Of a stretch of 64,000 nucleotides of DNA, positions 1 through 26,200 are shown one piece after another. The DNA is from Escherichia coli (lineage in GTDB: Bacteria; Pseudomonadota; Gammaproteobacteria; Enterobacterales; Enterobacteriaceae), in assembly GCF_024502345.1 (NCBI RefSeq), contig NZ_JALDNN010000001.1; one strand, given 5' to 3'. The first letter of the stretch is position 1. Each line of letters starts with the position of its first letter. Position numbers and translations under genes: made by a program. Below the pieces are notes generated by a model that worked only from the letters and a program-made list of their open reading frames with translations, was not told the origin of the DNA and made no database searches.

Positions 1-932
<932 letters not shown>

Positions 933-1038
933 CTAATCAGATAGAACAGTCCCGGATAATATTCGGGACTCATACACTGACATACTGAGTTCTGAATTTA
1001 GTAGCAAGATTACTTATGATTATTTAAGGATAGTAACC

Positions 1039-2004
1039 ATGCCTTTAGATTTAAGTAACACCTTAGTTATTGGCATCAGCGCAACCGCGCTTTTCGACAT
1101 GAGTGAATCCGATCGCATGTTTCGCGAAACCTATGCGACCGATCCTGATAGCGCCATTGAAAAGTATCGCGCCTACATGCTGGAGCACGAAAACCAGCCT
1201 TTACAACCAGGAACAGGCTATCCCTTGGTCAAAGCGCTTTTGGGACTCAACCAGCACCGTCAACCCGATGATAAATCACCGCTGGTTGAAGTTGTCGTGA
1301 TGTCGCGTAACAGCCCTGATACCGGTATCCGTGTCCTAAATACCATTCGCCATGACAAACTCGATATTACACGTTCAGCCTTTACCGCAGGTGAAACTGT
1401 TGCCGATTACTTAGATGCTTTTGATGTGGATCTGTTTTTAACGACCAACGTTGAAGATGCGCAAAAGGTGATTGATTCCCGGTTCTGCGCCGCAGCAATC
1501 CTGAAAGATCCGCCTTCTGACGCATCTGATATCCCCGAAGGGCAAGTGCGCATTGCTTTTGACGGTGATGCAGTGCTTTTCTCTGATGAAAGTGAGTTAG
1601 TTTATAAAACTCAAGGGATGGCCGCTTTTCACGCCCAGGAGGATGCGCAGCAAGATATCCCGATGGCTGAGGGACCTTATGCCACTTTGCTAAAAAAAAT
1701 AGCCAAGCTTCAGGAGCGATTGCCAACACGAGTCGAGTATTCTCCCGTCCGTATTGCGCTGGTGACAGCCCGAAATAGCCCTTCGGAAATGCGCGTCATT
1801 AAAACGCTGAGAAGCTGGGGGGTATATGTCGATGAAGCTTTTTTTCTTGGCGGTGTAGAGAAAACAAAAGTTCTGAAGGCGTTTAAACCGCACATTTTCT
1901 TCGACGACCAGGATGTGCATTTGGTTGCTGCCGCAAAGGTTGTTCCTTCCGGTAAAGTACCTTATGCCAGTAATTCAGAGCTTTTTGAAAACGTAGCATC
2001 ATGA
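1039..2004 (+). CDS. Predicted HAD-like 5'-nucleotidase of the cytosolic cN-IA type (321 aa); islet cargo gene
   Basis: Translation contains an FDGDAVLF (DxDx[TV]) motif and overall resemblance to the bacterial 5'-nucleotidase family; family assignment is from memory, not a search. Confidence 0.6.
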   Translation: MPLDLSNTLVIGISATALFDMSESDRMFRETYATDPDSAIEKYRAYMLEHENQPLQPGTGYPLVKALLGLNQHRQPDDKSPLVEVVVMSRNSPDTGIRVLNTIRHDKLDITRSAFTAGETVADYLDAFDVDLFLTTNVEDAQKVIDSRFCAAAILKDPPSDASDIPEGQVRIAFDGDAVLFSDESELVYKTQGMAAFHAQEDAQQDIPMAEGPYATLLKKIAKLQERLPTRVEYSPVRIALVTARNSPSEMRVIKTLRSWGVYVDEAFFLGGVEKTKVLKAFKPHIFFDDQDVHLVAAAKVVPSGKVPYASNSELFENVAS

Positions 2005-2010
2005 AACTTT

Positions 2011-2049
2011 AAACAAATAGCCATCTTTACATCTAGATGGCTATTTGTT
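2011..2049. terminator. Hairpin with about 14-bp perfect stem between convergent genes; probable bidirectional terminator
   Basis: ACAAATAGCCATCT ... AGATGGCTATTTGT inverted repeat directly after the stop codons of the 321-aa gene and the integrase. Confidence 0.5.
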
Positions 2050-2052
2050 AAT

Positions 2053-3267
2053 TTATGCCGTCTTCCTAAATGCACCCTCTACCACACCCCCGCCTTTCCC
2101 CAGCTCACCAATGTAATCCGCATACCACTGCATCATTTGCCTACGCCCATCAAGATACTGCGCATGGTTATACGTGCCGCGAATCGCATTCTTATCGACA
2201 TGGGCAAGCTGCGTTTCAATCCACGCTGAGTTAAAGCCCTGCTCGTGCAGAATGGTACTCATCGTGTGGCGGAAACCATGTCCCGTCAGCCTGCCTTTAT
2301 ACCCTAATAACTCAATGACCTGATTGATGCTTTCCTTGCTGATCGGCTTGCGAGGATCATTCCTGCCGATAAAGACCAGCGCGTGATGTTTTGATATCGG
2401 CTCAAGTTGCTTGAACAGCGCAATAACCTGTTCTGAGAGCGGCACAATATGGGGCCGTTTCATCTTCATCACTTCTGCCGGGATCTCCCATAGTTTTGTC
2501 TCAAAATCGATATCCTCCCAGCGTGCGAAACGTAGTTCTTGCGTGCGTACACCGGTTAACATAATGATCTGAGTGGCGGTCTTCGTGATAACACTGCCGG
2601 TATAACCCGCCAGATCATTGAGAAAGTGAGGTAGTTCATTGGCAGTAAGGAAAGGAAAATGTACCTTTTTTGGCGTAGCTAAGGCGCTGGCAAGATCGGG
2701 GGCGGGGTTGTAATTCGCTCTGCCGGTAATAATTGCAAAACGGAATACTTCCCCGCAGCGCTGGCGAACTTTACGCATTTTCTCCAGCGCTCCGCGTTTC
2801 TCCATCTTACGTAGCGCTTCCAGTAGTTCCATTGGCTTAATATCAGCAATAGGGCGCTTACCGATGTAGGGGAAGATGTCCTTCTCAAAGGTGTCGATGA
2901 TTTCATCGCGGTAGCGCAATGACCAGCGATCGGCTTTAGTCTGATGCCACTCGCGAGCCACGGCTTCAAACGTGTTCTCTGCATTCAGTTTCTGCGCAAG
3001 TTTCTCGGATTTTTTAGTTTCTCCGGGGTCGCCACCTGCCGCCAGAATCTTCTTCGCCGCATCACGTTTTTCACGGGCGTCTGCCAGAGAAACATCGGGG
3101 TAGACGCCAAAAGCGAGACGCTTCTCTTTACCTGCAACGCGATATTTCATGCGCCAGTAGCGTGAGCCATTGGTTGCTACTTCAACGTACAACCCTCCTG
3201 CATCACCTAAGCGATACGTCTTTTCTCTGGGTTTTAACGCACGCACTTTTGCATCAGTTAATGGCAT
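2053..3267 (-). CDS. Tyrosine recombinase, P4-type integrase (404 aa), apparently intact
   Basis: N-terminal arm-binding region (MPLTDAKVRALKP...GLYVEV...YWRMKYR) and C-terminal catalytic residues (GHGFRHT ... RGTYNHAQY); lies next to the tRNA-Sec 3' end. Confidence 0.9.
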   Translation of the reverse strand: MPLTDAKVRALKPREKTYRLGDAGGLYVEVATNGSRYWRMKYRVAGKEKRLAFGVYPDVSLADAREKRDAAKKILAAGGDPGETKKSEKLAQKLNAENTFEAVAREWHQTKADRWSLRYRDEIIDTFEKDIFPYIGKRPIADIKPMELLEALRKMEKRGALEKMRKVRQRCGEVFRFAIITGRANYNPAPDLASALATPKKVHFPFLTANELPHFLNDLAGYTGSVITKTATQIIMLTGVRTQELRFARWEDIDFETKLWEIPAEVMKMKRPHIVPLSEQVIALFKQLEPISKHHALVFIGRNDPRKPISKESINQVIELLGYKGRLTGHGFRHTMSTILHEQGFNSAWIETQLAHVDKNAIRGTYNHAQYLDGRRQMMQWYADYIGELGKGGGVVEGAFRKTA

Positions 3268-3706
3268 CGTTGTTTCCTCCTGAAAGCAAGAATGCTTTGA
3301 CAGCCTGGGTTTGTTCGGGTGTCAGGGATAGGGTTTGTTTGGTTGTTTTGATGGTTAAGCCGTAATGCTCTGAGAGGGAAAGTTGAAAGGATTGTTTGGC
3401 CCGTTCCTGGCGACGTTGCTCTCTTTCGTGAGCCTTATCGATTGCAGGATCGTAGCCCTCTTTGATTTTTACTCTGGCTTTATCCCTTAGCACAATGGCT
3501 TCTTTAATCGTGACGTCCGGCCATGCTCCAAATGTGAGGCTTTTCTCCTTCCCCTCTATCCGGTACTTCATCCGCCAGCACTTTGACCCCGTTGGATTCA
3601 CCAACAAAAAGAGCCCTCTGCCGATAGAAAATTTGTAAGGTTTACTACGGGCATCAAGTGACTTTATTATTTGATTATTAATGATTTTTTGTTCTTTTGG
3701 TGGCAT
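3254..3706 (-). pseudogene. Integrase N-terminal fragment (150 codons, arm-binding domain only), stops 14 bp inside the start of the intact integrase
   Basis: Translation MPPKEQKIINNQIIKSLDARSKPYKFSIGRGLFLLVNPTGSKCWRMKYR... resembles P4-type integrase N-termini but lacks the catalytic domain. Confidence 0.6.
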
Positions 3707-3862
3707 GTCATTTTACCTCCAATGGTTGGTATGCCCAATTGTGCCCCCAAAGGCGTATTGATACCAGTAGACTCCGGTTGACCTCAGAATACAAGGAAGG
3801 CTTGATATATAAGGGATGAGAAGAGATTTTGTTGACGTCAGAAGAGTTCAGGAGAGGCTAAT

Positions 3863-3957
3863 TGGCGGAAGATCACAGGAGTCGAACCTGCCCGGGACCG
3901 CTGGCGGCCCCAACTGGATTTGAAGTCCAGCCGCCTCACCGGAGACGACGATCTTCC
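3863..3957 (-). tRNA. selC: tRNA-Sec (selenocysteine tRNA), 95 nt
   Basis: Reverse complement reads GGAAGATCGTCGTCTCCGGTGAGGCGGCTGGACTTCAAATCCAGTTGGGGCCGCCAGCGGTCCCGGGCAGGTTCGACTCCTGTGATCTTCCGCCA, the E. coli selC sequence. Confidence 0.95.
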
Positions 3958-4249: not shown

Positions 4250-5632
4250 ATGAAGAGTGAAGTGTTGTCCGTTAAAGAGAAAATTGGTTATGGCATGGGA
4301 GACGCCGCCAGCCACATTATTTTCGATAACGTAATGTTATATATGATGTTCTTTTATACCGATATTTTTGGCATTCCTGCCGGTTTTGTCGGAACCATGT
4401 TTTTGGTCGCTCGTGCACTGGATGCGATTTCCGATCCTTGCATGGGGTTGTTGGCCGATCGAACGCGCTCTCGCTGGGGTAAATTTCGTCCGTGGGTACT
4501 GTTTGGCGCACTGCCATTCGGGATCGTCTGTGTACTGGCCTATAGCACGCCAGATCTCAGTATGAACGGCAAAATGATCTATGCAGCAATTACTTACACC
4601 CTACTTACCTTACTTTATACCGTCGTCAATATCCCTTACTGCGCATTGGGTGGTGTAATCACCAATGACCCGACTCAGCGTATCTCGCTGCAATCCTGGC
4701 GTTTTGTGCTGGCGACCGCGGGAGGCATGCTTTCTACTGTTCTGATGATGCCACTGGTTAATTTAATTGGCGGTGATAATAAACCACTCGGTTTCCAGGG
4801 CGGTATCGCGGTCCTTTCCGTGGTGGCATTCATGATGCTGGCATTTTGTTTCTTCACCACTAAAGAACGCGTTGAAGCACCACCTACAACAACGTCTATG
4901 CGGGAAGATTTACGTGATATCTGGCAAAACGACCAGTGGCGGATTGTCGGTTTACTAACCATTTTCAATATCCTGGCGGTGTGCGTACGCGGTGGGGCGA
5001 TGATGTATTACGTCACATGGATTTTGGGTACGCCGGAAGTGTTTGTCGCTTTTCTCACCACTTATTGCGTGGGTAACCTGATTGGTTCCGCACTGGCAAA
5101 ACCGCTGACCGACTGGAAATGTAAAGTCACTATCTTCTGGTGGACGAACGCCCTGCTGGCAGTGATTAGCCTCGCAATGTTCTTTGTTCCCATGCAGGCC
5201 AGCATCACTATGTTTGTCTTCATCTTCGTGATTGGTGTGTTGCATCAACTGGTGACACCTATCCAGTGGGTAATGATGTCCGATACCGTCGATTACGGCG
5301 AGTGGTGCAATGGTAAACGCCTGACCGGGATCAGTTTTGCTGGCACGCTGTTTGTGCTCAAACTGGGGTTGGCCTTCGGCGGCGCTCTTATCGGCTGGAT
5401 GCTGGCTTATGGCGGATATGATGCGGCAGAAAAAGCTCAGAACAGCGCCACGATTAGCATCATTATCGCGCTATTCACGATTGTTCCGGCGATCTGTTAT
5501 TTGCTGAGCGCGATTATCGCTAAACGCTACTACTCACTCACGACGCACAATCTGAAAACCGTTATGGAACAGCTGGCTCAGGGCAAACGCCGTTGCCAGC
5601 AACAATTCACCTCTCAAGAAGTGCAGAACTAA
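4250..5632 (+). CDS. yicJ: GPH-family sugar:cation symporter (460 aa)
   Basis: Translation matches YicJ; start set at the MKSEVLSV methionine inside the longer ORF. Confidence 0.9.
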   Translation: MKSEVLSVKEKIGYGMGDAASHIIFDNVMLYMMFFYTDIFGIPAGFVGTMFLVARALDAISDPCMGLLADRTRSRWGKFRPWVLFGALPFGIVCVLAYSTPDLSMNGKMIYAAITYTLLTLLYTVVNIPYCALGGVITNDPTQRISLQSWRFVLATAGGMLSTVLMMPLVNLIGGDNKPLGFQGGIAVLSVVAFMMLAFCFFTTKERVEAPPTTTSMREDLRDIWQNDQWRIVGLLTIFNILAVCVRGGAMMYYVTWILGTPEVFVAFLTTYCVGNLIGSALAKPLTDWKCKVTIFWWTNALLAVISLAMFFVPMQASITMFVFIFVIGVLHQLVTPIQWVMMSDTVDYGEWCNGKRLTGISFAGTLFVLKLGLAFGGALIGWMLAYGGYDAAEKAQNSATISIIIALFTIVPAICYLLSAIIAKRYYSLTTHNLKTVMEQLAQGKRRCQQQFTSQEVQN

Positions 5633-9842: not shown

Positions 9843-11234
9843 TTACTGTTTTTCTGGTGGGAAAATCAGATTCAGCACGATGGCAGTAATACCGCCCGCG
9901 GCGATCCCGGAGGAGAGCAGGTTTTTCAGCCATTCAGGGGCAAACTGCAAAATCAGCGGCTGCTGAGACACGCCCAGACCAACCGCCAGCGACAGCGCGA
10001 TAATCAGAATCGCCCGACGGTTCAGCGGCTCACGAGAAACGATACGCACACCGGAGGCGGCGATGGTGCCAAACATTACAAGCGTTGCGCCGCCCAGAAC
10101 CGGTTCTGGAATGTGTTGTACAAAACCGCTCACTGCCGGGAACAGACCCAGCACGATCAACATCAGCGCGACGACAAAACCGACATAGCGGCTGGCAACA
10201 CCGGTCAACTGGATCACTCCGTTGTTCTGCCCGAAGCAGGAGTTCGGGAAGGTGTTAAACACCGCCGAAACAAACGAGTTCAGGCCGTTTGCCAGCACGC
10301 CGCCTTTCAGGCGTTTCATGTACAGCGGACCGGACACTGGCTGTTCGGAAACGTCAGAGGTCGCCGTGATATCGCCAATGGTTTCCAGCGAAGTGATCAT
10401 AAAGACCAGCATCAGCGGCAGCAGCAGACTCCATTCAATGCCAAGACCGTAATAGAGCGGCGTTGGCACCATAATCAGTTCTTGCGTCATCGGTTCGTTG
10501 CTTTCTGGCAACATGCCCATAAACCACGCCAGCGCATATCCGGCCGCCATCGCAATCACCAGTGAGGCCACGCGTAAGTAAGGGTTACGTTGACGGTTAA
10601 GCAGGATAATTAAGGCTAAGACCACGCCTGCCAGCAGCAGATTTTTCGGTGCGCCGAAGGTGTTATCGCTCATGGCTGCGTAACCGCCGCCAATTGAGGT
10701 CAGCCCCACCTGAATTAGCGACAGGCCGATAATCATCACCACAACGCCAGAAACCAGCGGCGTAATAATGCGGCGCGCCAGATGCAGAACACGGGAGATC
10801 ACCATCTCGGTGCAACTTGCCAGCATCAACGTGCCGAACAAAGCCGCCATCATGGTAGGAACATCAGCACCACCGGTTTTCAGCGCGGTACCGCCCATAA
10901 TCAGCGGGGCAACAAAGTTGAAGCTGGTGCCCTGAATAGACAACAGCCCGGAGCCAACCGGACCCCAGGCCTTAATTTGAATAATCGATGCCACACCGGA
11001 GGCAAACAGCGACATACTAATAATGTGTTGCGTGTCTTGTGCCGGTAAACCCAGCGCCTGGCAGATTAATAGCGCTGGCGTGATCACCGCAACGAACATT
11101 GCCAGCAAATGCTGACAGGCGGCAAACAGGGTTTGAGGAAGCGGCGGACGATCTTCAAGACGGTAAATCAGTTCGCTGTTTTGAGTCTGCGCAACCGGTT
11201 GCGCACTTTCTGACTCGAGGGTGGAAACAGACAT
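9843..11234 (-). CDS. xanP: Xanthine permease, NCS2 family (463 aa)
   Basis: Translation matches XanP (YicE); start at MSVSTLE. Confidence 0.9.
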
Positions 11235-11513
11235 CGAAAACAATCCCGTGGTAGCAAAGCGGGCATTTTAGCTGACCGAAAGAGAAAAGCAAACGTTTGC
11301 TACATCCTCATCTAAATATTTAAATGAGATAAATGCACTTTTTTATATAACTTTTGGTATTTTTCTGCTTAAAATCCATGCCATTTGTTCATTAACAGCT
11401 GAGAATTTGACCCAGGAAAGCATGACTCGATACCCGTCATATTTCATGAAGTTGCCACTGCGCGATGAAGTATGACGAGTATGAAAGAGTGATGCGGATA
11501 CAAAGGAGTAACT

Positions 11514-12719
11514 ATGTTTCATCTCGATACTTTAGCAACGCTTGTTGCCGCAACGCTGACGTTGCTGCTCGGGCGTAAGTTGGTCCATTCCGTCTCCTTT
11601 TTGAAGAAATACACCATACCGGAACCTGTTGCGGGTGGTTTGTTGGTGGCGCTGGCGCTACTGGTACTGAAAAAAAGCATGGGCTGGGAAGTCAACTTTG
11701 ATATGTCCCTGCGCGATCCGTTAATGCTGGCTTTCTTCGCCACCATTGGCCTGAACGCCAACATTGCCAGTTTGCGTGCCGGTGGGCGTGTGGTTGGCAT
11801 CTTCTTGATTGTGGTTGTTGGTCTGTTGGTGATGCAAAATGCCATTGGCATTGGGATGGCTAGCCTGTTAGGGCTTGATCCGCTGATGGGGCTGTTGGCC
11901 GGTTCTATTACGCTTTCCGGCGGTCACGGTACGGGAGCTGCATGGAGTAAATTGTTCATTGAACGTTATGGCTTCACCAATGCGACGGAAGTGGCGATGG
12001 CCTGTGCAACGTTCGGTTTGGTGCTGGGCGGCTTGATTGGCGGTCCGGTAGCGCGCTATCTGGTGAAACACTCCACCACGCCGAACGGTATTCCGGATGA
12101 CCAGGAAGTCCCGACGGCGTTTGAAAAGCCGGATGTGGGCCGCATGATCACCTCGTTGGTGCTGATTGAAACTATCGCGCTGATTGCTATCTGCCTGACG
12201 GTGGGGAAAATTGTTGCGCAACTTTTGGCTGGCACTGCTTTTGAACTGCCGACCTTCGTCTGTGTACTGTTTGTTGGCGTGATTCTGAGCAACGGTCTGT
12301 CAATAATGGGCTTTTACCGCGTCTTTGAGCGTGCGGTATCCGTGCTGGGTAACGTAAGCTTGTCGTTGTTCCTGGCGATGGCGTTGATGGGGCTGAAACT
12401 GTGGGAGCTGGCTTCGCTGGCGCTGCCGATGCTGGCGATTCTGGTGGTACAGACCATCTTCATGGCGTTGTATGCCATCTTCGTTACCTGGCGCATGATG
12501 GGCAAAAACTACGATGCGGCAGTGCTGGCTGCGGGTCACTGTGGTTTTGGCCTCGGTGCAACGCCAACGGCAATCGCCAACATGCAGGCGATCACTGAAC
12601 GTTTTGGCCCGTCGCACATGGCCTTCCTGGTAGTGCCGATGGTCGGTGCGTTCTTTATTGATATCGTTAACGCGCTGGTGATTAAGCTGTATTTGATGTT
12701 GCCGATTTTTGCGGGTTAA
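11514..12719 (+). CDS. gltS: Sodium/glutamate symporter (401 aa)
   Basis: Translation matches GltS. Confidence 0.9.
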   Translation: MFHLDTLATLVAATLTLLLGRKLVHSVSFLKKYTIPEPVAGGLLVALALLVLKKSMGWEVNFDMSLRDPLMLAFFATIGLNANIASLRAGGRVVGIFLIVVVGLLVMQNAIGIGMASLLGLDPLMGLLAGSITLSGGHGTGAAWSKLFIERYGFTNATEVAMACATFGLVLGGLIGGPVARYLVKHSTTPNGIPDDQEVPTAFEKPDVGRMITSLVLIETIALIAICLTVGKIVAQLLAGTAFELPTFVCVLFVGVILSNGLSIMGFYRVFERAVSVLGNVSLSLFLAMALMGLKLWELASLALPMLAILVVQTIFMALYAIFVTWRMMGKNYDAAVLAAGHCGFGLGATPTAIANMQAITERFGPSHMAFLVVPMVGAFFIDIVNALVIKLYLMLPIFAG

Positions 12720-12721
12720 AA

Positions 12722-13588
12722 ATGAAAAAGCGTCGGAAGGAACCGGAAACGCTACGTGAACACTGTCGCCACATTTTTGGTGATGAGCCGCCAGTGCTCT
12801 GTGTATGGGAAACGGAATTTGATTACGCAGATGCCGAACTCAAGGCGCTGGCGGCTAAAGAGTGGCAGCAGATCAGCGAATGGGATTTGAGTGCTTACTA
12901 TGTACTCAATCTCGTTTATAACGAACCGATGCAAATAGAGTTGTTTCGCTATCTGTTTCCGCTCTGCCTGGCGCAATGGCATGAAACCGTTTTAGCTGGC
13001 GGTTATGGTGATCACTTCGAAGAATCCTTAATGAAGGCATTGCGTCGGCCCTATCTCTGGCAGGAGATGATGAATGCTTCCCAACGCCAGCAGGTACGGC
13101 AATTTTTACTGGACACCGCGTTGCAGCGTATGGATAACGAGCGTGGTTTCAATAACGTTCTTTGCTGGCTGGCGGTGTTCAATACTCTGGGTGGGGCCGC
13201 GCCGTTAATTCGTTCTCTCTGGTCGCGCTGGTGGGCGCTGGATACGCCGGGAAAAGCGGTGTGTGCTATTCAGTATGCCGCGCATCTAATTTATCCCATA
13301 GAAGCCAATCCGTTATGGTCGCAAGAATGGATAGGCTGGGGGCATCCATTAGGCCATAAAGATGGCTGGTCCTCTGATAATCGCGCTTTTCTTCGCCAAA
13401 TGTTAACACCTGAAATGATTGTGGCTGGCGTACAGGCAGCGGCTGAAATTCTGCGTGGTGAACCGGAAGGCGCAATGGCGGCGCGAATTGCACAGGATGC
13501 GTATGAGGCAATGGATATCCTCACTATCCAGATTGAAGATTTACTGCGTGACTTGTCTCGTGATGAGTCTGGTCATGCGTTGGAGTAA
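12722..13588 (+). CDS. Hypothetical protein, 288 aa, no recognisable domain; ATG 2 bp after the gltS stop, 3' end overlaps the recG 3' end by 16 bp
   Basis: Long ORF with E. coli-typical codon choice in an intergenic position; not antisense to any known gene. Confidence 0.5.
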   Translation: MKKRRKEPETLREHCRHIFGDEPPVLCVWETEFDYADAELKALAAKEWQQISEWDLSAYYVLNLVYNEPMQIELFRYLFPLCLAQWHETVLAGGYGDHFEESLMKALRRPYLWQEMMNASQRQQVRQFLLDTALQRMDNERGFNNVLCWLAVFNTLGGAAPLIRSLWSRWWALDTPGKAVCAIQYAAHLIYPIEANPLWSQEWIGWGHPLGHKDGWSSDNRAFLRQMLTPEMIVAGVQAAAEILRGEPEGAMAARIAQDAYEAMDILTIQIEDLLRDLSRDESGHALE

Positions 13589-15654
13589 CGTTCCGTCTCC
13601 GGCATCCAGCGTTCTATCAAGGCTTTTGCCTGTTGTGGGTAACGTTCGTGAATATGTCGCGCCAGGCGCTGAACTTCCGGGATCATCGCCTGATCGCGCA
13701 GTAAATCCGCCACTTTAAATTCAGCATTACCCGTCTGACGCGTGCCTAACAATTCGCCAGGGCCGCGAATCTCCAGATCTTTTTGCGCAATCACAAAACC
13801 GTCGTTACTGTCGCGCAGCACTTGCAGGCGAATTTGCGCCGTTTTAGAAAGCGGCGTTTTGTAGAGCAGCACGCAGTGAGAAGCCACCGCGCCACGACCT
13901 ACGCGCCCGCGCAGCTGGTGTAACTGCGCCAGACCCAGACGCTCAGGGTTTTCGATAATCATCAGGCTGGCGTTAGGCACATCAACACCGACTTCAATAA
14001 CGGTAGTGGCAACCAGCAGATGTAGCTCACCTTGTTTAAACGACGCCATCACCGCCTGTTTCTCGGCTGGTTTCATCCGCCCGTGTACCAGGCCAACATT
14101 CAATTCTGGTAGCGCCAGTTTCAACTCTTCCCAGGTAGCTTCCGCCGCCTGCGCTTCCAGTAACTCTGACTCTTCAATCAACGTACAAACCCAGTACGCC
14201 TGACGACCTTCAGTTATGCAGGCGTGGCGCACGCGGTCAATGATGTCGGTACGGCGAGTATCAGGAATAGCGACCGTAGTCACTGGCGTGCGGCCTGGCG
14301 GCAGTTCATCAATGACCGAGGTGTCGAGATCGGCATACGCAGTCATCGCCAGCGTGCGGGGGATCGGCGTGGCGGTCATGATCAACTGATGCGGATGGAA
14401 GCCTTGCTGCTGGCCTTTCTCCCACAATGCCAGACGCTGATGCACGCCAAAGCGATGCTGTTCGTCGATAATCACCAGCGCCAGGCCGTTAAACTGCACC
14501 TGTTCCTGGAAGATGGCGTGTGTTCCGACAATCATCTGCACCTGACCGCTGGCGATGGCTTCCTGCTGTGCCAGCCGCGCTTTACCTTTCTGCTTACCGG
14601 CGAGCCAGCCCACTTCGATACCGAGCGGTGCAAACCAGTTACGGAAGTTATTGGCGTGCTGTTCGGCGAGTAATTCGGTTGGTGCCATCAATGCCACCTG
14701 TTTGCCGTGGGCAATCGCACGCAGCGCGGCGAGGGCAGCGACCAGCGTTTTACCGGAACCTACATCGCCCTGTACCAGGCGCATCATCGGCACATTCAGC
14801 GCCATATCGCGCTCGATCTCCGCCACCACGCGAGCCTGAGCGCCCGTTGGCTTGAACGGTAAGGCGGCAAGAAGTTTATTTTTCAGCGTGTCATTGGCGC
14901 TCAGCGGCTGGGCATGGAAACGTTGCGCTCCGGCGCGTAAGGCTAACATGCTGAGGTTATGCGCCAGCAGTTCTTCCAGAATCAGACGACGTTGCGTCGG
15001 ATGCTGCCCGGTTTCCAGATCGCTAAGTTGCAGCGTCGGCGGCGGGCGGTGCAAAGTGCGCAACGCTTCCGGTAGCGTCATCATTCCTTGTGACAGTTCC
15101 GGCGGCAGGAGTTCTTCAATGGCGCAGGTGTCGAGCAGATCCAGCGCCTGGTCGGTTAATTTACGCAGCGTGGCCTGCTTTACGCCTTCGGTTGTTGGAT
15201 AAACCGGCGTGAGCGTTTCCTGCAACTCTGGCGTACTGAGATCGCCCTGCACGCGGTATTCCGGGTGGATCATCTCCGCACCATATTTACCGCGCTTTGC
15301 TTCTCCATAGGCCAGCACGCGGCGGCCCGTCGCCAGGCTATTTTTCATTGCCGCGTTGAAGTTGAAAAAGCGCATGGTGAGAATGCCGGAACCGTCGCTG
15401 ATCTGGCAGGTCATCATCCGCCGACCGCCGAAGGAGATATTGCAGTTCAGCACTTCGCCTTCCACCGTGGCATAAACGCCCGGTAGTAGTTCTCCGATGG
15501 GGTAGAGATGGGTGCGATCTTCGTAGCGCAGGGGAAGGTGTAACAGTAGATCCTGCACGGTATGCAGGTTGATTTTCGCCAGTTTGTTACTAAGTGCTGC
15601 GCCAACGCCCGTTAGGGAACTGAGTGGGACAGCATCTAACAGGCGACCTTTCAT
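13573..15654 (-). CDS. recG: ATP-dependent DNA helicase RecG (693 aa)
   Basis: Translation matches RecG; start at MKGRLLDAVPL. Confidence 0.9.
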   Translation of the reverse strand: MKGRLLDAVPLSSLTGVGAALSNKLAKINLHTVQDLLLHLPLRYEDRTHLYPIGELLPGVYATVEGEVLNCNISFGGRRMMTCQISDGSGILTMRFFNFNAAMKNSLATGRRVLAYGEAKRGKYGAEMIHPEYRVQGDLSTPELQETLTPVYPTTEGVKQATLRKLTDQALDLLDTCAIEELLPPELSQGMMTLPEALRTLHRPPPTLQLSDLETGQHPTQRRLILEELLAHNLSMLALRAGAQRFHAQPLSANDTLKNKLLAALPFKPTGAQARVVAEIERDMALNVPMMRLVQGDVGSGKTLVAALAALRAIAHGKQVALMAPTELLAEQHANNFRNWFAPLGIEVGWLAGKQKGKARLAQQEAIASGQVQMIVGTHAIFQEQVQFNGLALVIIDEQHRFGVHQRLALWEKGQQQGFHPHQLIMTATPIPRTLAMTAYADLDTSVIDELPPGRTPVTTVAIPDTRRTDIIDRVRHACITEGRQAYWVCTLIEESELLEAQAAEATWEELKLALPELNVGLVHGRMKPAEKQAVMASFKQGELHLLVATTVIEVGVDVPNASLMIIENPERLGLAQLHQLRGRVGRGAVASHCVLLYKTPLSKTAQIRLQVLRDSNDGFVIAQKDLEIRGPGELLGTRQTGNAEFKVADLLRDQAMIPEVQRLARHIHERYPQQAKALIERWMPETERYSNA

Positions 15655-16355: not shown

Positions 16356-18464
16356 TTAATTTCGGTTTCGGGTGACTTTAATCACGTCTGGCATCACGCG
16401 GATTTTGCGCATGATATTCGCCAGATGCACACGGTCACGAGCGGTCAGACGAATAAAGGCGCTGTAGACGCGACCATCTTTCTCTTCCGTATTCAAACTT
16501 TGAATATTCGAAGTCGTGGTGTTAATTGCCGCCGTCAGGTTTGCCAGCGCGCCCTGATGATTGAACATCTCCACCTTGATTTCGGTGATGAACTCCTGCG
16601 CCGTCTCTTTATCCCATTCCACAGCCATAAACTTCTCTGGCTCTTTCTGGTAGCCACGGATGTTACGGCAGGATTCATGGTGGATCACCAGACCTTTACC
16701 GGGGCTGACGTGGGCGATAATCGGGTCGCCAGGAATAGGGCGGCAGCATTTCGCAAAGGTGATCAGCACGCCATCGGCACCTTTAATGGGCAGATGTCCG
16801 TGACTTTGGGTTGCCGGTGGAATGGAGGCGTCCCCATGTTGCAGATTTTTCGCGACCACCACGCTCATTGCGTTACCAAGTCCGATTTCTGCCAGCAGAT
16901 CGTCAAGCGTTGCCAGCTTCATACGATCCAGCTCGCGCTGAATATTTTCCTGCGGGATTTCATTCAGCTTACGGCTACCACCCAAAGCATGGTTGAGCAG
17001 ACGACGGCCCAGGCTTACAGAATCATCACGCTTGAGGTTTTTCAGCAACTGACGAATTTTGGCGCGCGCTTTCGAGCTAACGACAAAGTTCAGCCACGCG
17101 GCATTCGGGCGAGCGCCGGGTGCGGTAATGATTTCAACGGTTTGACCGCTGGTAAGCGGCTGCGACAGCGGGTAAGGCTGACGGTCGACGCGTGCGCCCA
17201 CGCAGGCATGACCGATATCGGTATGCACTGCATAAGCGAAGTCGACAGGCGTTGCACCGGCAGGCAGTTCGACAATGCGCCCTTCCGGTGTGAAAACGTA
17301 AATCTCATCCGGGAAGAGATCGGATTTAACGCTCTCGATAAATTCAAACGAGCTACCGGCGCTTTGTTGCAGCTCCAGCAGGCTTTGCATCCAGCGCTGG
17401 GCGCGGATTTGTGCAGTCGTGCTGGTTTCGCCGTGCTCTTTATAAGCCCAGTGCGCGGCAACACCCATCTCCGCCATCTGATCCATATCTTCGGTACGGA
17501 TTTGGACCTCAACCGGCACGCCGTGCGGGCCAATCATCGAGGTGTGCAACGACTGATAGCCGTTCGCTTTTGGAATGGCGATGTAGTCTTTCACGCGACC
17601 CGGACGCGGCTTATACAGGCTATGCATCTGGCCGAGCACGCGATAACAGGTGTCGGAATCATTGACGATCACGCGGAAAGCGTAGATGTCCATGATCGAG
17701 TGAAAACGCTGCTCTTTGAGCACCATTTTGCAGTAAATCGAATAAAGATGCTTCTCGCGACCACTGACGCGGCACGGTATTCCCGCTTCCTGCAAACGCC
17801 CTTCGATTTCAGAGAGGATTTTTTGGATCATCTCTTTACGGTTGCCGCGCGCGGCTTTCACCACTTCTTTGATTACGCGATAACGGTTGGGATACAGCGC
17901 CTCAAAACCCAGCTCTTCGAGTTCGGTTTTAATGTGGTGGATACCTAAACGGTGCGCCAGCGGGCTATAAATTTCGAGAGTTTCACGGGCGATGCGGCGA
18001 CGTTTGTCCGGGCGAAGTGAGCCCAGCGTGCGCATGTTGTGGGTACGGTCGGCAAGTTTGATGAGGATGACGCGGATATCCTGCACCATCGCCATAATCA
18101 TCTTGCGAAAGTTTTCGGCCTGCGCCTCTTTCTTATCGCGGAACTTGAGCTTATCAAGTTTCGACACCCCCTCTACCAGCTCGGCGACGCTTTTACCAAA
18201 AAGCTGTTCCATGTCCTGGTAGGTGGCGGGAGTATCTTCAATCACGTCATGCAGCAGCGCTGCCATAAGCGTTTCATAGTCGAGTTTCATCTCGGCCAGA
18301 ATGCAGGCAACAGCTACCGGGTGCGTGATATAGGGTTCACCGCTTGAACGTGTTTGCCCCTCGTGAGCATCACGTGCAACGAGATACGCCTGCCGCAGAC
18401 GCTTGATTTGGTCTTCCGGCAGGTAGGTTTGAATCAGTTGATTCAGGCTTTCAAACAGATACAA
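16356..18464 (-). CDS. spoT: Bifunctional (p)ppGpp synthetase/hydrolase SpoT (702 aa)
   Basis: Translation matches SpoT. Confidence 0.95.
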   Translation of the reverse strand: MYLFESLNQLIQTYLPEDQIKRLRQAYLVARDAHEGQTRSSGEPYITHPVAVACILAEMKLDYETLMAALLHDVIEDTPATYQDMEQLFGKSVAELVEGVSKLDKLKFRDKKEAQAENFRKMIMAMVQDIRVILIKLADRTHNMRTLGSLRPDKRRRIARETLEIYSPLAHRLGIHHIKTELEELGFEALYPNRYRVIKEVVKAARGNRKEMIQKILSEIEGRLQEAGIPCRVSGREKHLYSIYCKMVLKEQRFHSIMDIYAFRVIVNDSDTCYRVLGQMHSLYKPRPGRVKDYIAIPKANGYQSLHTSMIGPHGVPVEVQIRTEDMDQMAEMGVAAHWAYKEHGETSTTAQIRAQRWMQSLLELQQSAGSSFEFIESVKSDLFPDEIYVFTPEGRIVELPAGATPVDFAYAVHTDIGHACVGARVDRQPYPLSQPLTSGQTVEIITAPGARPNAAWLNFVVSSKARAKIRQLLKNLKRDDSVSLGRRLLNHALGGSRKLNEIPQENIQRELDRMKLATLDDLLAEIGLGNAMSVVVAKNLQHGDASIPPATQSHGHLPIKGADGVLITFAKCCRPIPGDPIIAHVSPGKGLVIHHESCRNIRGYQKEPEKFMAVEWDKETAQEFITEIKVEMFNHQGALANLTAAINTTTSNIQSLNTEEKDGRVYSAFIRLTARDRVHLANIMRKIRVMPDVIKVTRNRN

Positions 18465-18482
18465 GGGCGACCCGCTTTGTGA

Positions 18483-18758
18483 TTAACGACGACCTTCAGC
18501 AATAGCGGTAACGGCTTGTAATTCAGCGGCTTCCTGCTCTTGCTGTTCCTGGCGTTCGCGAACGTCGAGGATCTGGTTGTTGATCAGACCTTCTTCGATT
18601 TCGCGCAGCGCGATTACAGTGGTTTTATCGTTTTCTTCCGGTACCAGCGGATCCTTTCCGCCTACCTGCATCTGACGAGCGCGACGCGCGGCGACCAGTA
18701 CCAGGTCAAAACGGTTACCAATTTTCTCTACAGCGTCCTGAACAGTTACGCGTGCCAT
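18483..18758 (-). CDS. rpoZ: RNA polymerase omega subunit (91 aa)
   Basis: Translation matches RpoZ. Confidence 0.95.
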
Positions 18759-18812
18759 ACTTAAAAAGCTCCACAGGTGAAGAAATGACTGGGCATAATA
18801 CTGAAATCAGGT

Positions 18813-19574
<762 letters not shown>

Positions 19575-19601: not shown

Positions 19602-21989
<2,388 letters not shown>

Positions 21990-22280
21990 GGTTCTCTCCC
22001 TAAAAATCTGTCTGGCAGGGTAGCGATTTGTGCGCATTGTCACGATTGAGATTTTTTAAGGTGAGGGGGAATTGATAACTTGTAGTTATGTGAAATCGCT
22101 ATTTTCTGTAGCGGAGATGCATTCTTCTGACTTCTTGTCTGAGAAAATGCATAAGAAAAAATAGGTTAAAACTGAGGGGTGGAAAAGAAAGGTGCAATGT
22201 TTAGCTATTGTATTCACCGCACCTGGACTTTGGCTTACGCATCGGGTGTCTCAATCAACAAAAAGAGTTTTTAGTTTCTG

Positions 22281-22478
22281 CTATTTTTTCTCTGTAATTT
22301 TTACACTGTTTTCCAACTGCTTAATGCTGACCTGCGGGGTCGGCAACTCCTCAGGCATGGTTCCGCCAAGTTCCTGAATGGTTTGCCTCACCTTGCGACC
22401 TACGTCAAAGTGTGTGGTGTTAGCTTGCTGTTTTGAATTCACGCCATCCCGCTTAAGTTTTTCTTCTGTTTGGGTAGC
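22281..22478 (-). pseudogene. dinD: 3'-terminal remnant (about 65 codons) of DNA-damage-inducible gene dinD; 5' two-thirds absent
   Basis: C-terminal part of ORF 22281..22592 (ATQTEEKLKRDGVNSKQQANTTHFDVGRKVRQTIQELGG...KITEKK) matches the recalled DinD C-terminus and sits at the K-12 dinD position between yicC and yicG; the ORF's first 38 residues look non-coding. Confidence 0.55.
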
Positions 22479-22814
22479 TACTTTGAACCGGATAACCTCG
22501 AATGGGTGACTGGTGAGATTGGTGCGCCGCCGTTCGATGTGTCGGGTGTGGCCTACCTGCTTCATGGCATGGTGTCGTTCGATAAGCGCCACCAGATCGA
22601 ATCAACCCGGCGCACACTGGAAAGCATGGTTGCTGGTGGACTGCTTGAGCGGGTGACAGTGTATGAATCGCGCCAGATACGGCGCGGCGGTGAGACTAAC
22701 GCAACGGTCGTGCGCTACGGTTTACCCGGTCAGTGCGCTGTTATGCGCGATACTGGCGGCGCTGATAGCCTGGCTGATTCCGGTAATACTGCGGAGTTAG
22801 GTCTACCGGCATAG
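22470..22814 (+). CDS. Hypothetical 114-aa ORF inside the dinD islet; possibly a 5'-truncated gene
   Basis: ORF only; protein-like composition; no recognisable family. Confidence 0.25.
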   Translation: MGSYFEPDNLEWVTGEIGAPPFDVSGVAYLLHGMVSFDKRHQIESTRRTLESMVAGGLLERVTVYESRQIRRGGETNATVVRYGLPGQCAVMRDTGGADSLADSGNTAELGLPA

Positions 22815-22858
22815 CTTACCCGTGGAGAAATGAATCATCGAATGAGTTTGGTCGGGAG

Positions 22859-23539
22859 TTATTCCACCAGCAAAAATGGCGTTGCCCGGTCTATGACGTT
22901 GATGCCAATTAACGAGCTAACATTTCGACCATTCACAATGCTATCCCGTTCAAGCAAATGCGCTATTTTTTCTACTTCATACCAGTATTGAGCCATGAGG
23001 GCTTTGGTCTTTTCAACGAGTTTAGAAAGCATTAACTCCCTGTTAATTTGCTTATTTGTAGCGCAGATTAAATCGAGCATGTCATTTACGTTAGCCATGT
23101 CATAGCGATGAGGTAGCGAATACTTTTTGTTGAAAATATCGTTGTTTTCGTAAAGGGCTTCGCTTACTGGTCCGGCGAGGGATACAAAAGCGGCCTTTTT
23201 TGCATCGCGCTTTATACCATCCGCATAGTAACGTATGAAAGGGATAACTTTACCATTCTGCCCAACTACACCAGATTTACTATCCCGCAAACGCCCGAGA
23301 TCGTGGCTGTGAATTATGCTGTGTTTAACAACGCCCAAACACTTGGCCTCATGTACATGTTCGCCAGCAACGTAACCGTATTCATCCATAACGGCGATAA
23401 CAATATTGGTTTCACGCCCACCGATATGACCAGGAATAACCGGGACAATTGTGGCAAATTCATTACCGTTAATTGTGCCCTGATAGGCGTTCAGATGAGG
23501 GGCGGCCTCAGAAATTAATCTGCTTTTTTCGATGTTCAT
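22859..23539 (-). CDS. Hypothetical protein (226 aa), cargo of the integrase islet in dinD; no family recognised
   Basis: Uninterrupted ORF with visibly lower GC than the flanking backbone, directly downstream of an intact integrase gene; contains a His cluster (GHIGG, EHVHE, HSIIHSHD). Confidence 0.6.
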   Translation of the reverse strand: MNIEKSRLISEAAPHLNAYQGTINGNEFATIVPVIPGHIGGRETNIVIAVMDEYGYVAGEHVHEAKCLGVVKHSIIHSHDLGRLRDSKSGVVGQNGKVIPFIRYYADGIKRDAKKAAFVSLAGPVSEALYENNDIFNKKYSLPHRYDMANVNDMLDLICATNKQINRELMLSKLVEKTKALMAQYWYEVEKIAHLLERDSIVNGRNVSSLIGINVIDRATPFLLVE

Positions 23540-23761
23540 TTTCAGTCTCCGTTAGGCGGCGGTGAGATTGTCCGGGTACCACATGGTTGACACTTAGATC
23601 CAACACGTAGTCGTACCTATCCAGTGAAAACCATTCCATCACATCGCCGTATTTAGCCCGTTTCATAACGCCACCTTTTACGCTGCGCCTTATTTTGTGA
23701 TTGAGCCAGGCGGTAAGGCTTCCCGCTTTTCGCCCCGTCGGGCTAGACTCAATCTATTCAG

Positions 23762-25021
23762 TTAGTTCGCCCTTCTGAGAGGCGTCACGTTGTAATCTTC
23801 GCCCTTCTCCAGAGCCACCAGCAAGCCCGCCCACTGTGTTAACGCAGCCCGTCGCTCGTCAAAGTATTGGTGACGGTTATAAATCCCCTCTACGCCCTTA
23901 ATGCGATGATTGAGGCATCGTTCCGCCACTACCGGATCAACGCCCAGCGCTGCTAAATGGGTGCGGGCCGTGCGTCGGAAGTCGTGAATCGTGAAATTAG
24001 GCACATCCGGCATTTCGGCGCGAACCTTAGCCAGTGCTACGGGCAGGGTGCTTTCCTGAATATGGGGGATCATGCGGTTTTGCATCTTTCTGGCTGGCAG
24101 TACCCATGCGCTGTTGCATGAGAACGTTTTAAGCTCTCTCAGCCATTCGACGGCTGGCGGTGCTAATGGGATGTCTATAGCGTCGCCGTTTTTGCTGCGT
24201 TCCTCTGGCAAGCGCCATACGGCTTTATCAAAATCGAACTCCTCCCAGCGGGCGGCGCATAACTCCATTTTGCGGACGCATAACGCTAACAGTAATTTGA
24301 ACGTGATTTCGTTCTGGCGACTGAATCCCTTAGCCGTGCGCATGGCTTTGAATAGCTGGATTAACTCATCGCGGGTTAACCAGCGGTCACGGGCAACTTC
24401 TTTCCCTCCGGCGTCTGCCACCTCAAAGGCTGAACAGGGGTTAATCTCCAGCGCGTGCCGTTTGATTCCGTAGTCGAATATGCGGCGCGTCCATCTCAGC
24501 ACGTCCGTTGCTATGGTCGGCGCTCCACGGTCAACAATACTTTTCAGCATGTCGTCGATATGGCGCGGCTTCACGTCCTCTACCTTCATGCTGCCAATGC
24601 AGGGGTTTATATCTTTGTCGATACGGCGGCGGAGTATATCTGGGTGCTTCCAGCGCGGCAGGATCTGACGCTCAAAGTATTCAGCGGCAAGCTCTGAAAC
24701 GCGCATGGCATTCTTCTCTGCTTCGATCTTCGCCAGTGCTTCGGCTTTCCGTTCCTGCTTCTCTCCTGCAACGTCATAGCCCAACGCAACGCGAGCCGAT
24801 AGCTCTTTGGCTGTCTCTCTGGCCTTTGATAGTGATAGCTCGGCATATGAGCCGATAACCATTGCTCGCTGCTTACCTGCGAATTTATAGCGAAAGCGCC
24901 AGAAAGGGACTGTGTAGTTTTTGGGGTAGCAAATATAAAGGCCGTTGCCATCGGCCCTTCCTTCAAATCTATCTCCGGCCTTTATCCATGCGCGGATCTG
25001 CATGTCTGTAATCTTTGGCAT
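23762..25021 (-). CDS. Tyrosine recombinase, phage-type integrase (about 419 aa), apparently intact
   Basis: N-terminal arm-binding region (GNGLYICY...FWRFRYKF) and catalytic residues (HDFRRT ... GIYNRHQY); start placed at MPKITD because the upstream ATG at 25057 lies inside a direct-repeat motif. Confidence 0.85.
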   Translation of the reverse strand: MPKITDMQIRAWIKAGDRFEGRADGNGLYICYPKNYTVPFWRFRYKFAGKQRAMVIGSYAELSLSKARETAKELSARVALGYDVAGEKQERKAEALAKIEAEKNAMRVSELAAEYFERQILPRWKHPDILRRRIDKDINPCIGSMKVEDVKPRHIDDMLKSIVDRGAPTIATDVLRWTRRIFDYGIKRHALEINPCSAFEVADAGGKEVARDRWLTRDELIQLFKAMRTAKGFSRQNEITFKLLLALCVRKMELCAARWEEFDFDKAVWRLPEERSKNGDAIDIPLAPPAVEWLRELKTFSCNSAWVLPARKMQNRMIPHIQESTLPVALAKVRAEMPDVPNFTIHDFRRTARTHLAALGVDPVVAERCLNHRIKGVEGIYNRHQYFDERRAALTQWAGLLVALEKGEDYNVTPLRRAN

Positions 25022-25144
25022 TGCGAATACCTGAACATTGAATGGGGGTGTGTACATAAACCGATGTACATAAAACCCATTATGTACACCACTATGTACA
25101 CGGCAATCGTGCGCTTTGTTGCTTCCTCATGATAGCCCATGATA

Positions 25145-25171
25145 ACAAAAAAGCCCGACAAAATGCGGGCT
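25145..25171 (-). terminator. Rho-independent terminator of yicC
   Basis: GCCCGCATTTTGTCGGGC hairpin followed by a T-run on the minus strand, about 40 bp after the yicC stop. Confidence 0.6.
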
Positions 25172-25210
25172 TTGCTGGTTTTGTGTATCTTTGTGATAGC
25201 TCTTAAATAT

Positions 25211-26074
25211 TTACTCGATATTCTGAATCTGCTCGCGCATCTGCTCAATCAACACTTTCAGCTCAATCGCGGAGTTTGTCACTTCGGCATTGATAGACTT
25301 CGACGCAAGAGTGTTCGACTCGCGGTTGAACTCCTGCATCATAAAGTCCAGACGACGACCAACGGCTTCTTTTTTCTTCAGAATGTTGTAGGTCTCTTTG
25401 ACATGCGCTTCGAGGCGGTCCAGCTCTTCGGCAACGTCAATTCGTTGTGCCAGCAGAACCAACTCCTGCTCCAGACGGTTGTTTTCCAACTGCACCTGAG
25501 CATCTTCCAGCTTCGCGACCAAGCGTTCACGCTGCCATTGCAGGATTTCCGGCATATGGGAGCGGACTTTGACCACTTCGGCGGTGACGCCTTCCAGACG
25601 CTGCTCGATCAATGCTTTCAGTGCCTGACCTTCGGTTTCGCGCGCGACAATAAAGTCGTCCAGGGTGCCATCCAACGCCGCGAGAATTTCAGCGGCAATG
25701 GCGTCAAGATCCTGCTCCTGGGCTGCCATCACGCCCGGCCAGCGCAGAATATCAACCGGGTTGATTTCCCCTTCGTCACTCTGCATTTTTACCCAGTTCG
25801 CGGCAGTTACCAGCTGTTTAGCCAGTTTTTCGTTGAGGATCAGCTCACCTTGCGCGCTAACATCTGGCTCATAGCGCAGGGTACATTCCACTTTACCGCG
25901 CGTCAGGCGAGAACGAATACGCTCACGAACGACAGGTTCAAGGCTACGGAACTGCTCCGGCAGACGAAAGTAAGTTTCCAGATAACGCTGGTTTACCGAG
26001 CGCATTTCCCAGGTTGCGCTCCCCCATTCACCCTTGATTTCACGCCGGGCGTAGGCGGTCATACTGCGGATCAT
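25211..26074 (-). CDS. yicC: YicC-family stress-induced protein (287 aa)
   Basis: Translation matches YicC. Confidence 0.9.
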   Translation of the reverse strand: MIRSMTAYARREIKGEWGSATWEMRSVNQRYLETYFRLPEQFRSLEPVVRERIRSRLTRGKVECTLRYEPDVSAQGELILNEKLAKQLVTAANWVKMQSDEGEINPVDILRWPGVMAAQEQDLDAIAAEILAALDGTLDDFIVARETEGQALKALIEQRLEGVTAEVVKVRSHMPEILQWQRERLVAKLEDAQVQLENNRLEQELVLLAQRIDVAEELDRLEAHVKETYNILKKKEAVGRRLDFMMQEFNRESNTLASKSINAEVTNSAIELKVLIEQMREQIQNIE

Positions 26075-26200
26075 AGACGTTCCTGTTTATAAAAGGAGAG
26101 GTGGAAGGATTATAGCCATCGATGCCTTGTCAGGATAGGAATAACCGCCGGAAGTCCGTATAATGCGCAGCCACATTTGTTTCAAGCCGGAGATTTCAAT

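Follow-up and report, generated by a model that had tools for sequence, protein, structure and literature searches.

The closest described relatives of the element analysed here are the phage-inducible chromosomal islands (PICIs) of Gram-negative bacteria, of which EcCICFT073 and EcCIMP1 are examples (Fillol-Salom 2018, PMC6092414; PMC11773190), and a preprint mentions reference PICIs that are integrated into yicC. In the SatelliteFinder scheme the possession of an integrase (int), alpA and a primase makes an element only a 'Type C PICI', a class that its authors treat cautiously, and this gene set cannot separate a Type C PICI from a P4-like satellite (PMC10085698). We analysed a 64,000-nucleotide stretch of Escherichia coli DNA (contig NZ_JALDNN010000001.1 of assembly GCF_024502345.1; hereafter the window, with positions counted from its first letter), in which 2,731 bp of foreign DNA at 22480–25210 lie between yicC and a truncated dinD gene. 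We put the probability at about 0.92 that this islet is the decayed remnant of a ~13-kb PICI-like satellite at yicC that was reduced by deletions, the last of which clipped dinD. The locus is a case of ordinary genome and mobile-element decay, not a compact defence or toxin cassette, and it does not challenge current understanding. An earlier sequence-only reading of the window had recognised here an integrative element in decay, its tyrosine integrase still intact beside yicC, and the tiling and the intact integrase reading frame described below bear this out; its further proposal of a compact single-gene defence or toxin islet fails, since what remains is ~21% of a ~13-kb int–alpA–primase satellite.

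The islet was tiled by local blastn onto satellites of other E. coli strains, with those of ET979 and PSS-13 as the main references. Four separate satellite pieces with 96–99.8% identity fully cover 22480–25210, and the yicG–dinD side is colinear with ET979, X14-3, T7Express and PSS-13 up to 22479. The chromosomal segment and the four pieces are the following:

21301–22479: chromosome, yicG and the last 199 nt of dinD; 98.0–98.5% identical to the reference strains and 100% to the sister assembly GCA_036619395.1
22475–22767: ET979 10984–11276 (98.3%) and PSS-13 13297–13588 (96.6%); codons 12–108 of a 119-aa gene
22766–23401: PSS-13 15001–15636 (99.8%); 3' flank and codons 44–223 of a 223-aa 'peptidase M41 family' gene
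23394–23578: ET979 20001–20185 (99.5%); last 8 codons of a 144-aa gene and first 46 codons of antA
23577–26200: ET979 21666–24289 (98.9%); first 30 codons of a DUF6387 gene, an RNA motif, int, repeats, a terminator and yicC

These segments meet at four deletion junctions, J1 to J4:

J1, 22475–22479: microhomology TAGCT (5 bp); 1,088-bp deletion relative to the sister GCA_036619395.1
J2, 22766–22767: microhomology TA; ~1.41-kb deletion relative to PSS-13, whose position 13588 is joined to 15001
J3, 23394–23401: ~6.5-kb deletion relative to PSS-13, whose position 15636 is joined to 22147
J4, 23577–23578: microhomology TA; ~1.48-kb deletion relative to ET979, whose position 20185 is joined to 21666

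At J3 the BLAST matches overlap by 8 bp, of which 4 bp (TAAC) are exact. J1 joins dinD to nucleotide 33 of the satellite's 119-aa gene, and the DNA lost there comprises 626 nt of dinD (its first 209 codons), the dinD promoter with a LexA-box-like palindrome, the native yicC terminator, the attachment (att) site attL, two arm-type repeats and the start of the 119-aa gene. Lost at J2 are a pRiA4b-ORF3-family gene, a 61-aa gene and perC. The J3 deletion took most of antA, an icd-like gene with its C4 and isrK RNAs (which are in the parent islands and not in the window region), several small open reading frames (ORFs), a P4-family primase (PSS-13 16404–18845) and a 57-aa gene, and J4 took most of the DUF6387 gene, alpA (ET979 20593–20802) and most of the 144-aa gene. 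Together J2, J3 and J4 account for ~9.4 kb of missing satellite DNA.

Because an int end of ET979 type and an M41-like gene of PSS-13 type do not occur together in any single sequenced island, we infer that the immediate parent was a mosaic of known modules. In the history that we propose, an int–alpA–primase satellite of ~12.5–13.3 kb integrated into the 3' end of yicC at a 21-bp core, thereby regenerating the C-terminus of YicC and supplying a new terminator. Three internal deletions (J2–J4, with 2–8 bp of junction microhomology) then stripped ~9.4 kb in this lineage, removing alpA with most of the int-adjacent variable gene, the antA–icd–C4/isrK–primase block, and perC with its neighbours, and leaving behind pieces of genes and a pair of ORFs fused by accident (the 226-aa AntA::M41-like ORF and a 52-aa ORF). 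A later deletion of 1,088 bp in the window strain took attL together with the native terminator of yicC, and cut away the promoter of dinD and its first 209 codons. To judge from their junctions, the deletions probably arose by illegitimate (microhomology-mediated) recombination. Satellite decay of this kind can reach neighbouring chromosomal genes, here dinD.

The locus was surveyed by megablast of 21900–25400 against 5,426 complete E. coli genomes, none of which has the window arrangement at ≥80% coverage of that segment; the arrangement is not universal in the species. The commonest arrangement is dinD alone between yicG and yicC, some E. coli (e.g., record L004) have neither dinD nor an island there, and a minority of genomes carry an island of 12.5–13.3 kb between dinD and yicC. 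Intact islands at this site are found in E. coli ET979, PSS-13, FLI21 and X14-3, and a yicC-adjacent integrase of a related family is present in 463 genomes (~8.5%), which shows that satellites have repeatedly used the yicC 3' end as their attachment site. Read from yicC, the intact islands contain an integrase, a variable gene, an AlpA-family regulator, a 144-aa protein, an AntA/AntB antirepressor, an Icd-like gene, small ORFs, a P4-family primase, ssb or other genes, perC, a pRiA4b-ORF3-family gene and the 119-aa gene; all are on the yicC strand except the last, which lies at the far end in the opposite orientation. The variable gene after int belongs to the DUF6387 family in ET979 and encodes unrelated 316/317-aa proteins in other islands, and the DUF6387 protein, the 316/317-aa proteins and the M41-like parent protein have no PADLOC match. 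The primase of the intact relatives matches the PHROG DNA primase family (9e-147). Partial decay intermediates were sought among the complete genomes, and none spans J2 or J3. The intact yicC satellites also carry C4 antisense RNA, isrK and c4-a1b1 target motifs over the 5' part of their 'Icd-like' genes (ET979 18738–18923; record L002 19557–19782; record L005 15767–16472), which constitute a P1/P4-type antisense immunity module within PICI-like elements.

Within the window the locus and its neighbours contain the following features:

19688–21375, plus strand: ligB, split into two ORFs
21372–22043, minus strand: yicG
22281–22478, minus strand: dinD 3' remnant (last 65 codons and stop)
22281–22592, minus strand: 103-aa ORF that ends in the last 65 codons of dinD
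22470–22814, plus strand: 114-aa ORF
22859–23539, minus strand: 226-aa ORF
23508–23666, minus strand: 52-aa ORF, absent from the list of the sequence-only reading
23687–23753, minus strand: int-alpA RNA motif, Rfam RF02996
23762–25021 (or 25057), minus strand: tyrosine integrase, 419 aa
25051, 25065, 25083 and 25095 (within 25051–25100): four TGTACA(C/T) repeats
25150–25173, minus strand: intrinsic-terminator hairpin directly 3' of yicC, from a terminator scan
25211–25231: att core (attR), the last 6 codons and stop of yicC
25211–26074, minus strand: yicC
downstream of yicC, plus strand: rph and pyrE

The last ~65 dinD codons, the 114-aa ORF, the low-GC 226-aa gene and the intact integrase are all present where they had been placed by inspection of the sequence. 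The 226-aa ORF, which had been taken for a gene, is a chimera that arose when a deletion joined two unrelated genes of the satellite, and in it AntA/AntB residues 1–46 (23402–23539) are fused in frame to residues 44–223 of the M41-like protein (22859–23401). Its GC content is 0.435 versus ~0.53 in the integrase, yicC and yicG, and drops to 0.41–0.46 along the ORF. The 223-aa M41-like parent protein has the sequence HEAGH at residues 27–31 and a weak match to Pfam Peptidase_M41 at residues 21–40 (E = 0.0026) that is its only Pfam signal; the fusion begins at parent residue 44, and HEAGH (a HEXXH zinc-binding motif) is missing from the chimera. No match to the chimera was found in PADLOC v2, PHROG, NCBIfam or Pfam, Peptidase M41 included. 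An exact protein look-up placed it on at least 66 contigs from E. coli assemblies and gut metagenomes, with GCA_036619395.1 and GCA_050032215.1 among the assemblies.

The other ORFs of the islet have similar origins. Positions 22480–22767 of the 114-aa ORF are codons 12–108 of the distal 119-aa hypothetical gene, which is truncated 5' and 3'; it is without the first 11 codons and the promoter of that gene, and its start is an artefact of J1 and its C-terminal tail an artefact of J2. The 52-aa ORF opens with 30 codons from the start of the DUF6387-family gene found after int in ET979 (23577–23666) and continues as an out-of-frame read-through, and 23552–23578 are the last 8 codons and stop of the 144-aa satellite gene. 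The 103-aa ORF over dinD is an accidental read-through across J1 into antisense satellite DNA. The 114-aa and 52-aa ORFs have no match in PHROG, NCBIfam, PADLOC v2 or Pfam, and the integrase matches no PADLOC v2 defence model; the small ORFs are without family matches because of their chimeric or fragmentary origin. None of the 226-, 114-, 52- and 103-aa ORFs is a cargo gene, and the fusion ORFs are probably non-functional. Caution is therefore in order with such loci, as a low-GC ORF by an integrase may mimic a single-gene defence islet and yet be a deletion-made fusion.

The att core was defined by comparing island-free, island-bearing and window sequences, and was taken from the intact relatives because a search for flanking repeats in the window gave only chance matches and a single core. 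The islands of ET979, X14-3 and PSS-13 have on both sides a 21-bp direct repeat, TTACTC(A/G)ATATTCTGAATCTG; the 21-bp core that serves as the integration site at the yicC 3' end is TTACTCRATATTCTGAATCTG, and the window's copy at 25211–25231 is TTACTCGATATTCTGAATCTG. Integration restores the C-terminus of YicC, and the single A/G difference in the core is synonymous. The core has one match only in the window when ≤3 mismatches are allowed, and as direct repeats flanking the islet only short chance matches were found there. Att repeats at both islet junctions, which the sequence-only reading had suggested seeking, are reduced to this single core copy, and the other end is without one. GTACAC/TGTACA repeats lie inside both ends of the intact islands, GTACAC-like repeats occur at the attL side in the sister genomes as well, and the four TGTACA(C/T) repeats in the window are putative arm-type integrase binding sites.

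The hairpin at 25150–25173 is common to the window and the ET979 island and is not present in island-free strains, in which the native yicC terminator is within the dinD–yicC spacer. When an island integrates, that native terminator ends up on the dinD side (attL), as does the old copy of the core. The hairpin is a predicted satellite-borne terminator that now serves yicC; what had been called the yicC terminator belongs to the element, and the native one was first shifted to the attL side and later lost by deletion.

The islet did not replace dinD, as had been supposed: the insertion was into the yicC 3' end, and sisters with the same remnant keep a full-length dinD. The closest chimera-carrying sisters (e.g., GCA_036619395.1) are 100% identical to the window on either side of J1 and have full-length dinD and attL in an extra 1,093-nt stretch (GCA_036619395.1 7066–8158), which corresponds to 1,088 bp deleted after the 5-bp TAGCT overlap is discounted. 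Since sisters with the J2–J4 remnant keep an intact dinD, that remnant is older than J1. The attL of the sisters already carries an 11-bp deletion in its core. The dinD remnant at 22281–22478 is 97.5–100% identical to chromosomal dinD (100% to that of GCA_036619395.1) and matches only positions 209–272 of the PADLOC PDC-S13 profile; the N-terminal Bro-N domain seen in the sister dinD is deleted. No second copy of dinD, full-length or otherwise, is present in the 64-kb window, and dinD function has probably been lost in the window strain. Among the sister copies, metagenome contig L012 has an integrase split by a deletion, with 10 bp (5085–5094) in place of the 128 bp equivalent to window 24446–24573, and L010 (7551–8771) has an ISL3/ISKox3 insertion with rearrangement on the dinD side; decay of the remnant is continuing in these sister copies.

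The surviving integrase is 419 aa long from its likely start at 25021, the length annotated in ET979 and the sisters (an in-frame ATG at 25057 would give 431 aa). Its reading frame is uninterrupted, it matches the PHROG 1 integrase family (7e-62), and the Pfam domains Arm-DNA-bind_3, Phage_int_M and Phage_integrase are recorded on an identical protein. Candidate catalytic residues recognised by motif are R250, K277, H346, R349, H372 and Y381, whose spacing matches that of R212, K235, H308, R311, H333 and Y342 in lambda Int. Relative to the ET979 integrase it has 7 synonymous changes and 1 non-synonymous change, and the exact protein is present on 63 contigs. By these features it is an intact P4-type tyrosine integrase. 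The int-alpA RNA motif is in its canonical position just 3' of the int stop codon, and scores 59.5 bits versus a gathering score of 35.8 over model positions 1–71 of 71; its minimum free energy fold reproduces the model structure, and in the copy of strain 2015C-3121 both the outer stem and the first hairpin carry compensatory changes. The RNA is orphaned in the window by the deletion of its partner alpA, and no helix-turn-helix match was found among the window ORFs.

Because attL, AlpA and the replication module are missing, the remnant is probably unable to excise or be mobilised, and activity would be left, if at all, in the integrase, the RNA motif and the att core. The att core might be a landing site for incoming satellites, and the integrase and core might act in trans. 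The lineage, naturally dinD-null and left with an orphaned integrase and an orphaned int-alpA RNA, could help in testing both of these alone.

Several points weigh against our interpretation of the islet as the remnant of a PICI-like satellite. No single sequenced island holds all four tiles, the int/DUF6387 end being ET979-like and the M41-like segment PSS-13-like and missing from ET979, and the J2–J4 deletion sizes are estimates from these proxy islands. The presumed parents hold 3 of the 5 SatelliteFinder PICI core components, the 'PICI' label resting on architecture, and their dependence on a helper phage is putative; the non-mobility and non-expression of the remnant are properties that we infer. 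The in-frame 226-aa fusion does not vary among the at least 66 contigs, and could still have a function; such identity is as expected of a clonal lineage. This ORF is also the centre of the view that the islet is a functional minimal element, an integrase with a single 226-aa defence or toxin cargo gene: the integrase is intact, the ORF is open, low in GC and conserved in many assemblies, and satellites are known to carry defence genes. The tiling already contradicts this view, and we consider it highly improbable, given that the ORF is an AntA/M41-like fusion made by a 6.5-kb deletion, without HEAGH and without any family match, and that the islet has one att core only, no recombination directionality factor or alpA, and flanking ORFs that are gene fragments. 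A role kept by selection for the integrase, the int-alpA RNA and the att core, as a domesticated recombinase or a satellite landing pad, would explain why four or five deletions have spared the integrase, why synonymous exceed non-synonymous differences 7:1 versus ET979, and why the RNA motif and arm-type repeats are intact. The integrase is, however, already broken in the sister L012, one survivor among ~20 genes is unremarkable, and the 7:1 ratio would have come mostly from divergence while both copies were in active elements, and we think such selection improbable. The suspicion that the truncation of dinD is an assembly artefact of a collapsed or misjoined contig arises from its absence among complete RefSeq E. 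coli genomes and from the full-length dinD of the closest sisters. J1 is not an artefact of that kind because it is reproduced in two independent datasets, being spanned colinearly in European Nucleotide Archive entry ERZ19692831 (99.6%) and in Logan SRR33906014 (100%), and it has a clean 5-bp microhomology, so that an assembly error has next to no chance of being the explanation.

The class of the parent is a further point at which another reading must be weighed, namely that a P4-like satellite or cryptic P4-type prophage, not a PICI, gave rise to the remnant. The intact relatives and the window resemble P4-like and CP4-type elements in their P4-type integrase with its arm-binding domain (Arm-DNA-bind_3), and the relatives further in a "P4 family" primase, an AlpA/Vis-like regulator and a C4/CI-type antisense RNA with an icd-like gene; the int, alpA and primase set is, moreover, indistinct between Type C PICIs and P4-like satellites (PMC10085698). 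The differences are that no psu–delta–sid operon or epsilon was found by PHROGs or annotation in the ET979 island or in the window, that no Psu, Sid, Delta or structural match is present among the ET979 island proteins, and that the gene order and perC fit described E. coli PICIs, yicC being cited as a PICI site in the preprint. A P4-like parent is unlikely on this evidence. The intact relatives are like PICIs in that int occupies one end with alpA after it, the genes run in one direction and include a primase and perC, the length is ~12.5–13.3 kb, genes for structural or lysis proteins are absent, and the att site on the chromosome is a dedicated one; they differ in having no identified capsid-morphogenesis or terS components. 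No capsid-morphogenesis or small-terminase gene was recognised in the ET979 island by PHROGs and annotation, where several proteins are still hypothetical, and from the putative packaging region the window keeps the M41-like fragment only. All that the window itself has kept is int, the int-alpA RNA, a single att core and pieces of genes. It has the integrase at its end, and alpA, a primase–replicase and flanking att repeats are absent from it; the parent is thus best described as a probable PICI-like satellite, and the window element as its remnant, lacking alpA, pri-rep and flanking att sites.

In its present state the islet resembles the cryptic remnants of E. coli, such as CP4-57 and the integrase stubs at tRNA genes, which likewise have an orphan intact integrase by an att site with fragments of neighbouring genes, and it shares with them short-microhomology deletions and decay that is ongoing in sister strains. 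It differs from them in that it targets a protein-coding gene (yicC, at the 3' end) and not a tRNA gene, and in that decay has reached the SOS gene dinD. As a representative of RF02996 the window's int-alpA RNA is full-length and in the canonical position, and differs in that alpA has been deleted.

Some yicC satellites (in 34 of the 5,426 complete genomes, e.g., PSS-13 12305–13129 and FLI21) have their own dinD paralogue just inside attL, which is 85% identical in amino acids and 75% in nucleotides to chromosomal dinD and has the same position and orientation relative to yicC. DinD and the satellite paralogue both match the PADLOC defence-candidate model PDC-S13 (~1e-124 each). The dinD cassette is missing in some E. 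coli (window 22164–22280 and 25211–25254; record L004 1764–1842), and on the right it ends at the yicC stop/att core. Downstream of dinD, a stretch of 23 nt (22238–22260) resembles the yicC codons just upstream of the core; this match is weak (local alignment score 24, reached by 2 of 500 shuffles), and the stretch may have been left by an earlier insertion that introduced dinD. We raise as a tentative idea, which on balance we doubt, that chromosomal dinD, a LexA-regulated SOS gene, began as an accessory gene of an older satellite that targeted yicC and survives as a fossil of it. If that were true, the remnant of one satellite would have deleted the domesticated defence/SOS gene of an earlier one, and the locus would be a nested satellite graveyard.

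Elsewhere in the window, ligB is divided into ORFs of 347 and 215 aa by a 1-bp deletion in an A-run, with a frameshift near 20713 relative to the ET979 ligB (1658/1683 identities and one gap in the alignment). The same split is called in the islet-carrying sister assemblies and is a marker of the lineage, and the split ligB is probably a pseudogene. The broken ligB and the lack of the arrangement in all 5,426 complete genomes had raised the thought of a Shigella source, but no such source need be assumed, as identical sisters bear the E. coli label and have the ligB frameshift too. A 288-aa ORF at 12722–13588 (plus strand) sits between gltS and recG; it has no match in NCBIfam or PADLOC, and is present in 1,910 of the 5,426 complete E. 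coli genomes, where it is annotated as a hypothetical protein. The start of the window has tRNA-SeC (selC) at 3863–3957 (minus strand), a P4-type integrase ORF at 2053–3267 (minus strand) and an IS5-family transposase at 33–785, and 33–3957 is the edge of a selC-associated island.

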